From: Escherichia coli
Lineage (GTDB): Bacteria > Pseudomonadota > Gammaproteobacteria > Enterobacterales > Enterobacteriaceae
NCBI RefSeq assembly: GCF_024298765.1
Contig: NZ_CP101210.1
Length of the DNA stretch: 64,000 nt
Reading direction: 5' to 3' (one strand)
How positions within the stretch are numbered: the stretch's first letter is position 1; every line of letters starts with the position of its first letter. This document shows positions 32,901-38,900 of this stretch, piece by piece. The position numbers are program-made.

Positions 32901-35900
32901 ATCCCATAAATGGATAGCTTCGATGATATACCGCCGCGGAAGATGGTCGGGAAGTTTATTCATGGGGAATATCCTTATACGTTCTCAGAACAGGCAGCAA
33001 AAAAACAAATGAGATCAAGGTAATATATCTTCACTTGCAGGCTTGAACAGCAGAAAATTTGCGAGCATGATCGCAATTATTTCACTGCCAGGGATATCAA
33101 TGGCTTCCAGTAAATCGCTACAGCAGGCAATTGCCAATATAAAAATCTGGCACAAGGGTGAACAGCGCGCGCCGCATAAGCCATTGTTATTGCTATACGT
33201 ATTAGCGGGATACCTGAATGGACATCCGCGCCTTTTCGATTATGGATCGGAAATCTACGAACCTCTGCACAGTTTACTGGAACGTTTTGGGCCACAGCGT
33301 TCACAGTACCGACCTGATATGCCGTTCTGGCGATTACAAGGCGACGGATTCTGGCAATTACACAATGCCGAGCTTTGCTCAACAGCAGGGAGCAGCCGAC
33401 AACCGCCAGTGAAAGAACTGAACGAATACCACGTTGCAGGCGGTTTCGATGAACAGCACTACGCCCTGGTAACCGGCAATAAAAAACTCATCAATACTCT
33501 GGCGCAACAGATACTCGAAGCGCACTTCACCGAGAGTATTCAGGAAGAAATTGCTGACGAGCTGGGTTTTGATCTCCAGCAAATCCGTAAACAGCGCGAC
33601 CCGTTATTTCGCAAAAATGTATTACGCGCTTATAACTACCAGTGCGCGATATGTGGCTTTAATATGCGCCACGACGACACCACCGTCGCGCTGGAAGCGG
33701 CGCATATTAAATGGAAACAGCACGGCGGTCCTTGTGAAATTCCTAATGGCCTGGCGCTTTGCGCAATTCACCATAAAGCCTTTGATAAAGGATCGATTGG
33801 CCTGGACGAAAATATGCGGGTACTGGTATCAGATGCGGTAAACGGCGGAGGGATCGTTGAGAGATTATTCTGGGATTTTGACGGGAAAACTATTGCGTTG
33901 CCGCAGGTGCGTAAAAATTACCCTTATGAGGTGTTTGTAGAGTGGCATCGGAAAGAGGTTTTTAGGGGGTGAGGTTGATAACTATCGCAGTATGTTCAAT
34001 ATTGCTGACATAATCAGTGCAGGATCTTGCCGCTAGTTTACAACTCGCCTTCGATAGCGGCGCAAAACGAGTTCTGTTGCCGATATCCTCGGCTATGGAT
34101 ATTCCAACAGTTCCGGCAGAGTTGTTTACCAAGTTTCAGGTAAGTTTTTACTCAGAACCGGTTGATGCGGTTTATAAGGCGCTGGATGTGAATTAACACA
34201 TTCCTCAGCTTATTTACAAAAGGATTATTCCCATTTGATATAATATCAGTGCCAATTTACTTTTTTCAATGGAATATATCTCGACTAAATAACAATAAAA
34301 CTTATCGCTAATGGATTAAATAAACAATTTTCTAATTCATTTCACCACCTTTGATATAGAAATTGATGGTGTTGTCGCTGCCATTGCTTATGGTGATGAT
34401 AAAATCCACGTTTCTGGATCGTTGCGTAGAAAATCATCACTACCTTGATATTTTGATGCGATATAATCATACCGTTCCGTAGTACCAATTTCAATTTCAG
34501 GCTAAACCCCAACATTAAAAAAATTAGAGTTATTCACTGATTATATTATCAATAATATAATCAGTGAATAACATGAACTATATAATAAATTGCTCTAATC
34601 ATTTCCCTTACGAATATATGGGCCAAAAGTCCAAGAATCATAATAAGGGTGATGGACTAATTTTTCATTAAATCGAACACTATAAGTTAATTTTTTTATA
34701 TTTTTACGTACAGCATTAATACTGGGCAAAGAGGAAAGATAATCTATAAACTTATCGATAGTGATTTCCCCTTCGCAACACTCAAACCCATCAATGATAT
34801 TTTTCGCCATTTTTCCATTTTCATTTGTTTGATATATCACTCCAGGTATTCGTTGAAAAAAACTAGATAATGCATATTTGTCCGCTACATATATATCATC
34901 CACATGATATTTCCCACCGAGCATAGTTGTAGTAACAATAAGCTTATACACACCTTTGGGTTGCCATGTTGATGGTAGTTCGAATTCTTTAATGATCACA
35001 TCAAGATGATTAAGATAATGTTCAGAAATTCGATTTATTTGTTGAAAATAAGAACGCATAAATTTATTATTATGATCATGTATTAATGAGCTATCTCCAA
35101 CGATGTTATACACTTGCTGATAGTACTTACCATAATATATTGGTTGACCATTTGATTTTAGTTCTGTAAAAATCAAACAATCATCCAGGAGAATCACGCA
35201 ATCGCACTGATAATTAGCATGAGCATCAATTGGAGAAGCTTTAATCCCCGCATCACGAACTTGTTTTATAAATTGTTGTTCATGAAATCGCCCTTTACTT
35301 GCTTGAGAAATTTTTTTGGAACCAAATAATGACATTAGAGAGCGAGTAACTGAGCTATTTGCTATTAATGCAGGCATTAAGCATAAACCGTCCATACAGG
35401 GAATAAATGGGCAATCATTAAGATCATGTGATTTTGAATTGAAGGTAAAATAATCTATCAGTTTTTTTGCTGCATCTGCTGCAATCCCCTTACGTTGAAA
35501 GAATGATAACCAACTCTCACGGCTTTTTATGATCAGCCAGCGATCCAACTGTAGGGGTATAGGTTTTGTCGATGAAAATCTTTTGCTCATTTCTTCTTTA
35601 GATAACTCGACTAAACATTGATAAGCGTGCACCCAATTAAATAATGATATATTCCCATATTCTTCATGAAGGTCATCAGGAGACATATTTTCCAACTCGC
35701 TTAGATGAAATGAGCTAAAAACGCCATCAGAATTTAAGTAAGATGGCATATGATCCTTTACCCAACTATTTAGATGAAAATGTTTGTTACTAAATTCATG
35801 AACTTCGCTATATAGATGTGACGCTCTCATCATTAGTCTATTTCTTGCAATCTCATAATCTCGGTATAAACAAAAACTATCAACCTCAAGAGAGTAAATG

Positions 35901-38900
35901 TTATTATCCAATTTTGTAAATACTGCACTACTTAGTCTGAAAAAGTCTCTTACTCTGCTTAATGAGTCAAAAACATTCCACTCATTAAGGTACCCTCCCA
36001 TTGAAAGCAAGGTTTGTTTATTCACACAAGAAGTTAGTTTCAATGGCCCATGAGTCCGTAAATAAGAAAATATTCTTCCGGTGTAATTGGCTACCTCATC
36101 AAATGCCCTATCGATAACTCGAAAATATTCGATATCAGGTTCAGCATGAATATTAATATTTTCAGAAACGATAAATAATGGAAAAATCCTCTTCATTTTT
36201 TTAGGATCATTGACCACAACCAAGGATGATAATGATGATAAAAACATCTCACAAAACATGATGAGATTAAGTATTAATGCATGTGATTTTTTTGTATTTT
36301 TACGCCAAATACCAGCACATTTTGTAGCCGCAAAGAAAGAATTATTTATATCATGCATAATTTTACATTGACTCTCGAACTCAGAGATTAGTTCAATGTT
36401 ATCAGGAAATGAGTTTACTAGCTCATTAATACATTTTTTGAATGTATTGTTATACTCAACTTCAGTCTGAACTGAAAATCTATTATAATAGATGGAAGAT
36501 ATTCTCAGCACATCCAAGGCGATATCTATACTAATATCATTTCTTTTTATGTACTCACAAAAAAAAGAACAAAACTGTTTCGGGTCGTTAGCAAGATTAC
36601 TAATTCTAGTGGTATCATAAACTTTTTCCATTTTTCCATACATCCTATTGTCTAAATTACTATAAAACTAGCCACTTAACTAATAATTATAAATTTCATC
36701 TTTTACACCTTGCATTTTTATAACCAATGAAATCTACAACAAGCAACTGATGGATAATCCGATATTGGTCGCATTTAATGGCATGGTAGCAAAGTTTTCA
36801 TCACATACCTCCTTTGCACCAGAATAAACGCCAGAGATCTGAAATTGCGAGTACACTACAGAAATTGTACTGCCGGTCCCATCAGCATAAAACCATAGTT
36901 ACACAGGTAATCATCATTATTCGCCAAGATAATAAATATTATTCGGTAGAATAGCGTTCTCAGGTGGTCAGTAAAATTGTCTTCAACAAGATGTCTGCGC
37001 ATCTCGTCTGCTAGCCCTACATAACTGCTCTCGACCGAAACTATTTATTGAATGTTCACCAAGGTGGGCGTGGAGACAAAATGACGTCTTTTGATATTAG
37101 CTACCTGAGCCACATGGTCAAAACGTTCAAGTAGCATACCGAAACCACCCTGCCCACGTAATGTGGACGATGCAGCTTCCAGCCAGAGCAAACTTGGGAC
37201 CATCGACTACAAAATGAAGAATACTGAACTGCTTTTCTGGCAGGCCTATATACTGCACGGATATGGGTGATTTCAGACACAAAAAAAGCCGCTCTTGAGC
37301 GACTCGATTTGCATACGGTGTGGTGCGAAGGCCGGACTCGAACATGTGACTTAACCTCATGATTTAAAATTGTTAATAATAAACAATATCATCTTATACC
37401 AACACAGATACCAACACGAAAAATCACTGGTTTTCGGCATCGAACCAGGACAATCAGCTCCTGATTGAGATACCGAGCTCTGTTACTCGTCATCTTCCTC
37501 GACAGGCTTCATTGCATCAAGTAGTACTCGCACCATCGCGATAGAACCAATCCGGATAAAAGCATCTTCTCCATCTATATCTGTTAACTGATATCGCTCA
37601 CTTGATGCCGGATAAGTGTGTCGATTTGCAGCAGTGTACTCTTTTGTACAGCCAGAATGTGGCTGACTGAGGTGGAGCAGATAATGTCCCCGTTGACCAC
37701 TTCCGGACGGGAGGCTGTGATTTCAGACATAATTGATATTCCTTTTTGCAGATAAATGAAAACGCCAGCCCTGTTCAGGCTGGCGTCAGTGGAATGAAGT
37801 ATGGTGAGTAATATTTATCGGTTCTGGTGCAGAAGCTGCAGTTGGCGCAGGGTACGGATACCCTCCCTGGCCTGTTCGATACAGGGCAACAGTGCTGCCG
37901 AATCCGTTTTATCCTCATCGTTGTCAAAGATAATTCCCGATTCGCAGTCGATATTGTCCTGCAGCCACACAATCAGAATATCCAGCGCCGTTTCTGTGGT
38001 TAATGATTTCATCCTGTGTCTTTTGTCCTGGTTACCAGTTGAAAGTGGGTAAATCCTGCAGACATTCAGCACCGGCATCCAGATGAATGAGACTGACGCC
38101 ATAACGTCGGGTAAGTGTGACAACCAGACGACGGAACGTTTTTGACAGGCCCAGCCGTTTAAGTCGCAGAACCGGGTACGACCACGCACCGATACGTAAC
38201 AGATATCCGCTGCCGGTAAAATGAATCCATTCTGATTCGCCGGTGTCATTTGTCTGATGCGACAGCGAGAACAGCCAGGCGTTGTCCCTTTCTGTGATAT
38301 GAGCGGTACTGCAGCGTATGCCGGTAAGGGCGGCAAATGGTAGCGTGCAGTCTGTTGAGGCCCGGTCAGATTCATCAACAACACGAAGGGAGTAACCGTT
38401 ATCGCAGACCACATTAATCAGTTCAGCGAGATTTACACCATCAATGTCAACGACAATGCGCCCCATGTTCAGTGCCTGCACGTTAATGCTGTCGGCTTCC
38501 AGTGTCAGGGAAAGTTTCATTGTTTCGCCTCCGGATGCTTCCCCAGGGTAATGTTATTTACCGTTCTGTAGTTGCTGCGGGTCATCAGACCTGTTGCCCG
38601 GCGTGCCCGGAGAATATCAATGCTGTTGATTAACTGCGACGAAGTTCCTGCGCTGAATCCCGGCTGGTCGGTACGCACCAGCGCGTATTTTTCCACGAGA
38701 AAGTTCACCGCATCACACAGTGAAATGCCTGCCTCAATATGCTGCTCAATCACACGTTCATCAGCGAACGGTGTGTCATTCAGCGTGAGGCCGTAGTGCT
38801 GGTCCAGCAACCGGGTGAGCAGTGTCTGCCAGATGGTGACGGGAGACGGGCAGCGAGATACCTCCCGTACATGTGTGTCGGATAATGTTTTCATCTTAAG

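Follow-up and report, generated by a model that had tools for sequence, protein, structure and literature searches.

In the anti-phage nuclease Upx, a phage protein relieves the auto-inhibition of the nuclease (PMC13099982), and the nuclease core shared by Shedu proteins is controlled by N-terminal sensor domains that vary (bioRxiv 10.1101/2023.08.10.552793). ZwsA (Zowangsin) of Pseudomonas aeruginosa is a stand-alone multidomain NERD endonuclease of 716 amino acids (aa) that is encoded in genomic islands. From the N-terminus onwards, it comprises a helical part, a middle domain, the NERD domain and a small C-terminal domain; defence requires the NERD site (E535/D567/E580/K582), and PP7 and MS2 RNA are cut in vitro (bioRxiv 10.64898/2026.04.06.716636). 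In this study, we analysed a stretch of 64,000 nucleotides from Escherichia coli (contig NZ_CP101210.1, assembly GCF_024298765.1; hereafter the window), which carries a gene for a hypothetical protein of 682 aa close to the leuX integration site. The protein is best described as a member of an uncharacterised family of stand-alone winged-helix-PD-(D/E)xK (NERD-like) nucleases whose N-terminal domain is new and which probably act in phage defence. Taking all readings together, it is rather probable that the gene encodes a defence nuclease of some sort.

The coding sequence is located on the minus strand at 34595..36643, counted from the first ATG, with the stop codon at 34595-34597. RefSeq starts the same open reading frame (ORF) at M5 (36631) and annotates a 678-aa 'hypothetical protein' (WP_000417002.1); 36631 is the likelier start, because all homologues begin at the position aligned with M5. 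Residue numbers given here refer to the 682-aa form. The sequence-only reading had drawn attention to a long, uninterrupted and AT-rich ORF, and this was confirmed: the guanine plus cytosine (GC) fraction of the gene is 0.326 (33%), that of the remainder of the window 0.477 (48%), and across 34250-36750 the fraction stays at 0.29-0.36, compared to about 0.45-0.57 in both flanks. The ORF is real and its length far beyond chance, since it is this long in 33%-GC DNA and is conserved across phyla.

The catalytic core was analysed in an alignment (A1) of 69 family members that are 15-55% identical to the query protein. P412, G451, D481, E494, K496 and D588 are invariant in these members, and E132, G386, D407, D410, P424, E455, C480, Q535, R538, R598 and G625 are conserved in at least 90% of them, E455 in 97%. 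According to the translation and this conservation, E455 ... D481 ... E494-x-K496 (35156..35281, minus strand) is the canonical E-D-ExK signature of PD-(D/E)xK nucleases. Such an E...D...ExK core had been proposed from the peptide FHEQQF...CDCVILLDDCLIFTELKS alone, which corresponds to residues 453-497, and the alignment substantiates it. Two further conserved sites were observed. The invariant D588 (window 34880-34882) is not one of the classical catalytic tetrad. The near-invariant D407, D410 and P412 (window about 35408-35425) belong to a motif S-x-D-L-x-D-C-P that is situated between recognition helix and wing in the winged-helix domain.

AlphaFold2, run with the family alignment, predicts a single-body model with a predicted local distance difference test score (pLDDT) of 91.8, a predicted template modelling score of 0.90 and confident packing between domains. 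From its secondary structure and from fold matches, four domains were delineated (all on the minus strand): an all-helical N-terminal domain (residues 1-322; 35678..36643), which is the least conserved part; a winged-helix domain (residues about 323-447; 35303..35677); a PD-(D/E)xK (NERD-like) nuclease domain (residues about 448-600; 34844..35302); and a small C-terminal alpha/beta domain (residues about 601-672) that is followed by a disordered tail, as judged from pLDDT (34598..34843). The winged helix is modelled with a strand at 371-373, helices at 375-384 and 389-399 and a beta-hairpin wing at 413-422. In the nuclease domain the alpha-beta-beta-beta-alpha-beta core fold of the PD-(D/E)xK superfamily is present, with E455 on helix 449-464, D481 on strand 480-486 and E494 and K496 on strand 489-496. 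The model thus shows four packed domains that include a complete PD-(D/E)xK site, and the gene comes without an ATPase, a methyltransferase or a partner gene. Mean pairwise identity within the family is 18.5% for the N-terminal domain, 29% for the winged helix, 31% for the nuclease domain and 19% for the C-terminal domain.

The strongest fold matches of the model were to FokI (score 10.4) and the defence nuclease Upx (10.2), followed by AF1548 (9.4), the small subunit of BspD6I (9.2), its large subunit, the nickase N.BspD6I (8.6), McrC (8.6), NucS (8.5), Hna (8.4) and Shedu SduA (8.2); winged helices of ROQ, Cdt1 and MCM8 were matched at 6.2-7.7. Foldseek found nothing at E<=1e-3, and its top matches were the same kinds of nuclease. 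The nuclease fold for which structure prediction had been suggested as a check is therefore predicted. Because the conservation of the E-D-ExK residues and the fold matches agree, the assignment as a nuclease is well supported at the superfamily level. The N-terminal domain has no structural match to any solved fold. The statement that the N-terminal 450 or so residues resemble nothing familiar has to be revised for residues about 323-447, which are predicted to form the winged helix.

Sequence profiles place the core among nucleases only loosely. A Pfam scan of all 69 members gave weak matches, of which the recurrent ones on the core all belong to PD-(D/E)xK-type nuclease families. NERD was matched at E<=0.1 in 11 of 69 members and at E<=1e-3 in two of them, whereas Card1_endonuc and Mrr_cat reached E<=0.1 in three members each and Hjc in one; Mrr_cat did not reach E<=1e-3 in any of the 69. 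In PADLOC, the model 'viperin-associated NERD' matches one member (E=1e-4), and UniRef labels one homologue as NERD. The query itself has no Pfam NERD match even at E<=10. These weak matches favour NERD over Mrr. The earlier description of the core as Mrr-like therefore holds for the fold and for the layout of a winged helix plus a nuclease, but not at the level of sequence profiles: aligned with hhalign, the family profile matched EcoKMrr with a probability of 0.7% and showed no similarity to McrC. No modified-base or backbone reader fold (SRA, EVE/PUA, YTH, SBD or DpnI-type) was detected.

The gene had been regarded as an orphan, which is refuted by an exhaustive HMMER search of 1.84 billion representatives: 227 family clusters, defined at 50% identity, were found at E<=1e-3 and 115 at E<=1e-10. 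With few exceptions, the members are 600-700 aa long and can be aligned over their full length. Close relatives (38-75% identity) occur in Salmonella, Izhakiella, Xenorhabdus, Pectobacterium, Pantoea and Mixta; distant named members are encoded on the chromosomes of Bacillus velezensis and B. amyloliquefaciens and on plasmids of Bacillus mycoides and Priestia, and the remaining members are metagenomic. No named Pseudomonas member was seen among the homologues. A scan for close relatives in one genome per species from about 100,000 species yielded three loci, a collection scan with a Bacillus member as query gave no match, and a profile search of a 5.8-billion protein set gained almost nothing over the single-sequence search. 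Judged by these sequence searches, the proteins, of about 650 aa, form a thinly spread and unnamed family that occurs in Enterobacterales, Bacillus and metagenomes. Within E. coli, the gene is present as a single copy with at least 99.4% identity in 334 of 5426 complete genomes, where it is always recorded as 'hypothetical protein' or as a pseudogene. Pfam gave no family-level match to the query, and PADLOC-DB v2.0.0, which includes Shedu, the PD-T4, PD-T7 and PD-lambda series and the Gao and Millman systems, contained no full-length match to the query or to 10 diverse members; all PADLOC matches of these proteins were local, spanning 30-65 residues of the nuclease core. Neither the protein nor the 69-sequence profile gave a meaningful match when searched against PDB sequences. 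A literature search for WP_000417002.1 found no mention, and the locus is not mentioned in the text of an E. coli defence-island paper. Four viral contigs matched in IMG/VR were rejected as cases of phage carriage: they are E. coli leuX regions that were called as proviruses, and they are no evidence of carriage because the gene lies outside the att repeat. A 4.2-kb contig filed as 'MAG: Lachnospiraceae bacterium' (SFGN01000178.1; copy L012) is 99% identical to the E. coli leuX region and is almost certainly a mis-binned E. coli contig.

Fourteen informative genomic contexts were inspected by hand, and the resulting counts carry no background-corrected statistic. Eight of them are defence or mobile-element settings, two are plasmids and four are housekeeping surroundings. 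The eight comprise the E. coli leuX locus with two type IV-like HNH nucleases; a type I restriction-modification system with a Cap4 nuclease; the cargo of a Tn7-like element with SLFN_AlbA_2, Gabija and a WYL regulator; an integrase island with a KAP NTPase, SNase, Mrr_cat/NA-iREase1 and PIN; a locus adjoining an AbiJ_NTD5 protein; two loci directly after prophage lysis cassettes, one of which adjoins pPIWI_RE; and a locus adjoining an ABC-3C-type CTD10/DUF2326 pair. The defence neighbourhoods that had been expected for homologues were thus encountered in part, but four of the 14 loci are plain housekeeping surroundings. No conserved partner gene or methyltransferase was found across the 14 contexts, in agreement with the earlier view of a discrete single-gene unit. 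In 11 of 13 loci the gene has a lower GC content than its flanks, and the copy on a Bacillus plasmid is flanked by insertion sequence (IS) elements. These neighbourhoods, the lack of a recurring partner or methyltransferase and the low GC content fit an accessory, horizontally moved, stand-alone defence gene. In two loci of distant homologues a gene on the same strand precedes the nuclease gene closely. On the Priestia plasmid pBEH5 (L020 7480-8010) a 176-aa hypothetical protein gene overlaps it by 13 nucleotides (nt), and in L006 (7020-7997) the gene of a 325-aa HTH_17 protein ends 4 nt before it; both upstream genes were not seen in other loci and may encode lineage-specific partners or regulators.

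The E. coli copies are frequently inactivated. Codons 26-29 (gene nt 78-85; 36559..36566, minus strand) contain a T8 homopolymer, which recurs as T7 in other E. coli. Among 11 other E. coli copies that were aligned, three are intact (including that of strain F11), five carry T7, two have other 1-nt deletions and one has a duplication of 222 nt, which is in-frame and tandem, comprises 74 codons and lies inside the N-terminal domain. The T7 allele leads to a stop at codon 32 and is found on different single-nucleotide polymorphism backgrounds (copies L028, L029, L022, L023 and L012), including that of avian pathogenic E. coli IMT5155; other, independent lesions map to gene nt 265 and 442 in L030, to nt 481 in L031 and to about nt 471 in L024. 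In an evenly spaced sample of genomes, seven of 28 copies have a net length change of -1 or -2. RefSeq labels frameshifted copies as 587-aa truncated proteins or as frameshifted pseudogenes, and on T7 alleles gene callers either begin at an upstream ATG in another frame, which yields products of 674 aa or 681 aa, or report a truncated coding sequence of 587 aa. A run of at least eight A or T was present in 36% of shuffles of the AT-rich gene; therefore, the T8 tract is no evidence of design and is simply its weakest point. The recurrence of T7 could reflect either repeated loss or switching by slippage. Repeated loss is compatible with a costly nuclease and also with decay. Between two intact E. 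coli alleles the ratio of nonsynonymous to synonymous substitution rates (dN/dS) is 0.30, calculated on only 11 differences.

The favoured explanation, to which we assign a probability of about 0.5, is that the protein is a self-contained immune nuclease, acquired horizontally as cargo of the leuX variable region and gated by its N-terminal domain. In such an enzyme, the winged helix would position the nucleic acid, most likely DNA, for cleavage, and the E455/D481/E494/K496 site would cut it in a magnesium-dependent manner, probably following dimerisation as in FokI and most PD-(D/E)xK defence nucleases. Since nothing protects the host genome, the activity must be restricted, either to a substrate that is absent from the host or by being held off until infection. 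The second solution is favoured by analogy with Upx and Shedu and by the fact that the N-terminal domain is the fastest-evolving part of the protein. The compact N-terminal domain might then keep the enzyme inactive on host nucleic acid, and it might be released by an infection-specific cue such as a phage protein or an unusual nucleic-acid feature; both steps are more weakly indicated than cleavage itself. The cost of accidental self-cleavage would account for the frequent frameshift alleles.

Several observations weigh against this explanation. The N-terminal domain has no recognisable sensor fold, and the proposed gating role is therefore a conjecture by analogy. No model of PADLOC, PHROGs or NCBIfam matches the whole protein or 10 diverse members, and no homologues were found in 50,697 phage genomes. 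The support from the neighbourhoods consists of a count, eight of 14 hand-inspected loci, and is no statistical enrichment, while four of the 14 are single-gene insertions among housekeeping genes. About a quarter of the E. coli copies are frameshifted, which could equally mean a decaying, useless gene. Finally, DNA of very low GC content is a target of H-NS, so the gene is possibly silenced in E. coli.

The sequence-only reading had also considered a type IV restriction-like effector. A modification-dependent (type IV) restriction endonuclease would be constitutive and non-abortive, and its winged helix, N-terminal domain or both would recognise a base or backbone modification that the host lacks. 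We consider this unlikely. The tandem of winged helix and PD-(D/E)xK domain does correspond to the layout of Mrr and of fusions with winged helices that read N6-methyladenine (6mA) (PMC11037411); methyltransferase-less type IIS-like nucleases such as the END nucleases can be modification-dependent defences (PMC12191111); both E. coli neighbours are type IV-like HNH nucleases, and a methyltransferase partner is missing from every one of the 14 contexts. However, without a known reader fold the proposal stays a guess, and the N-terminal domain, which matches nothing, is the most divergent part of a protein in which a reader would be expected to be well conserved. In addition, dependence on Dam-type 6mA should be impossible in Dam+ E. 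coli, and an enzyme that is constitutively active yet harmless would not be expected to be inactivated so often by frameshifts, though this could still happen. A stand-alone NERD endonuclease of ZwsA type, which would cut structured phage RNA such as the genomes of single-stranded RNA phages rather than DNA, is quite improbable, even though the proteins resemble each other in size, stand-alone organisation, genomic-island location and site layout (the spacing from D to ExK is 13 in both) and, among Pfam families, NERD fits the members of the query family best. Compared by published description, none of 240 collected proteins has the residue numbering of ZwsA. Relative to the query, the catalytic lysine of ZwsA is 86 residues more distant from the N-terminus, and the tail behind it is 52 residues shorter; no named Pseudomonas member was seen in the query family, and the strongest fold matches of the query are DNA enzymes.

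The two remaining explanations deny the gene a function in defence. A selfish or decaying mobile-element gene without benefit for host defence, either a toxin or addiction nuclease or the relic of an element integrated at leuX, would account for the very low GC content, the frameshifts in about a quarter of the E. coli copies and the 222-nt internal duplication in one of them, the IS elements around the Bacillus plasmid copy and the gene remnants nearby (the peptidase pseudogene and nanS, which is truncated in some strains). It is nevertheless distinctly unlikely, as the protein is conserved over its full length with an invariant active site across Proteobacteria and Firmicutes, occurs in settings as different as Tn7, prophage, integrase island, plasmid and bare chromosome rather than with a single type of mobile element, and has neither an adjacent antitoxin-sized gene in the window nor a conserved partner elsewhere; the dN/dS of 0.30, on its few differences, points in the same direction. 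Highly improbable is a housekeeping nuclease for DNA repair or recombination of the NucS or Hjc type, given the patchy, strain-specific distribution, the accessory-gene composition and context and the frequent loss.

Returning to the gated immune nuclease, a more specific version can be formulated, in which the protein is the founding member of an undescribed one-protein immune nuclease family. Its helical domain of new fold would sense a phage cue and unlock a NERD-type nuclease guided by the winged helix, and slippage at the T8 tract would repeatedly switch the gene off, and perhaps on again, in E. coli, so that the leuX hotspot would harbour a contingency-type locus. This version is possible but doubtful.

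The position of the gene was determined by comparison with other E. coli. The window is collinear with strain 13P477T up to 37326, from where a CP4-type island inserted into leuX extends rightward. At this boundary, comparison with the island-free strain identified an 18-nt copy of the leuX tRNA 3' end, an att-type repeat (37326..37343, minus strand), about 0.7 kb from the nuclease gene; the window contains no intact tRNA. Since the collinearity runs to the point that this repeat marks, the nuclease gene is outside the CP4-type island, in the variable stretch that flanks the leuX integration site. In strain 13P477T, leuX is situated directly on one side of the gene, and a peptidase pseudogene, two HNH genes, truncated nanS, nanM, nanC and fimB on the other; leuX directly adjoins the gene in NZ_CP019273. 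The CP4-like island extends rightward of 37343 to at least 41757. Its ORFs presumably encode a RadC-like YeeS, a CbeA/CbtA-type toxin-antitoxin pair and YfjQ-like proteins.

On the 3' side of the gene, a perfect hairpin with a stem of 18-20 bp and a loop of 4 nt (hairpin 34572-34529; with the T run 34516..34572, minus strand) folds with a free energy of -28.3 kcal/mol; compared with shuffled sequences its z-score is -6.3, and none of 200 shuffles folded equally well. The stem is AT-rich, and a T7 run begins about 5-6 nt past it. The element is terminator-like but falls short of the textbook form, as the T run is not flush with the stem; the strong hairpin that had been attributed to the gene is thus confirmed. 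Two HNH genes and a peptidase remnant, already named as neighbours, were verified. The larger HNH gene (33043..33972, plus strand; RefSeq start 33100) is annotated in RefSeq as 'phosphorothioated DNA-binding restriction endonuclease' and matches PADLOC HNH (E=5e-25) and mREase_IV (E=1e-7). The second encodes a 216-aa HNH endonuclease (32313..32963, minus strand) with weak matches to type IV restriction enzymes, such that both match PADLOC restriction models (mREase_IV, 1e-5 to 1e-7). The remnant, which the sequence-only reading had called Lon-like, is the C-terminal part of a peptidase gene and a RefSeq pseudogene; it is located at 34017..34196 (plus strand; coordinates mapped via an offset of 22299). 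About 570 bp (window 32418-32990), comprising most of the 216-aa HNH gene, are missing from three other E. coli leuX regions (L021-L023); therefore, the small nuclease cluster beside the gene is itself strain-variable. Further to the left, a nanM-like ORF (30418-31260, plus strand) encodes 280 aa, compared with 368 aa in NZ_CP019273, and abuts a 322-aa ORF (29307-30275, minus strand) that we take to resemble an IS5-type transposase. This arrangement suggests an IS insertion into nanM.

The carriers make up about one in 16 complete E. coli genomes; among them are F11 (uropathogenic), IMT5155 (avian pathogenic) and an O145 strain, whereas K-12 lacks the gene. If the protein is a defence nuclease, the immune repertoire of E. 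coli would gain a compact system of one gene, with a sensor domain that resembles no solved fold, and this would be relevant to the prediction of host range in phage therapy. It would also provide a simple model for how a methyltransferase-less nuclease avoids self-damage, and the frequent, independently arisen frameshifts would constitute a natural record of the cost of carriage.

How does the protein compare with known systems? In contrast to FokI and type IIS restriction-modification systems, it has neither a cognate methyltransferase nor a sequence-specific recognition domain. EcoKMrr and Mrr_cat proteins share the order of a winged helix and a PD-(D/E)xK nuclease, the lack of a methyltransferase and a location among restriction genes, but Mrr has only about 300 aa and possesses neither the 320-residue helical N-terminal domain nor the C-terminal domain. 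The winged-helix fusion endonucleases (DpnI-like type IV enzymes; PMC11037411) have a similar build, with a winged-helix reader attached to a PD-(D/E)xK or other nuclease, but they are smaller and recognise Dam-type 6mA, a specificity that would be lethal in Dam+ E. coli. PADLOC PDC-M29B is locally similar over the D...ExK strands in four family members (E 1e-3 to 2.5e-5); however, the profile, which derives from a candidate system of several genes, has 164 positions, and only about 50-65 residues match. END nucleases were rejected as relatives, because they belong to the PLD family and contain an EndoIII domain that is inactive (PMC12191111). Shedu (SduA) has another N-terminal domain, and no PADLOC Shedu model matches the query family. 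Upx (PMC13099982; PDB 9wuf) is, as proposed for the query, a single-protein PD-(D/E)xK anti-phage nuclease, but it comprises 1212 aa with two nuclease domains and has no sequence match to the family. ZwsA, set against the query by description, is an RNA endonuclease whose catalytic residues are shifted in position by 80-86 residues. Both proteins are encoded by a single gene of about 700 aa in genomic islands, and in both an E...D...ExK core with a D-to-E spacing of 13 is accompanied by a helical part at the N-terminus and a small domain at the C-terminus. If they were homologous, RNA-phage defence would extend from Pseudomonas to enterobacteria and Bacillus.

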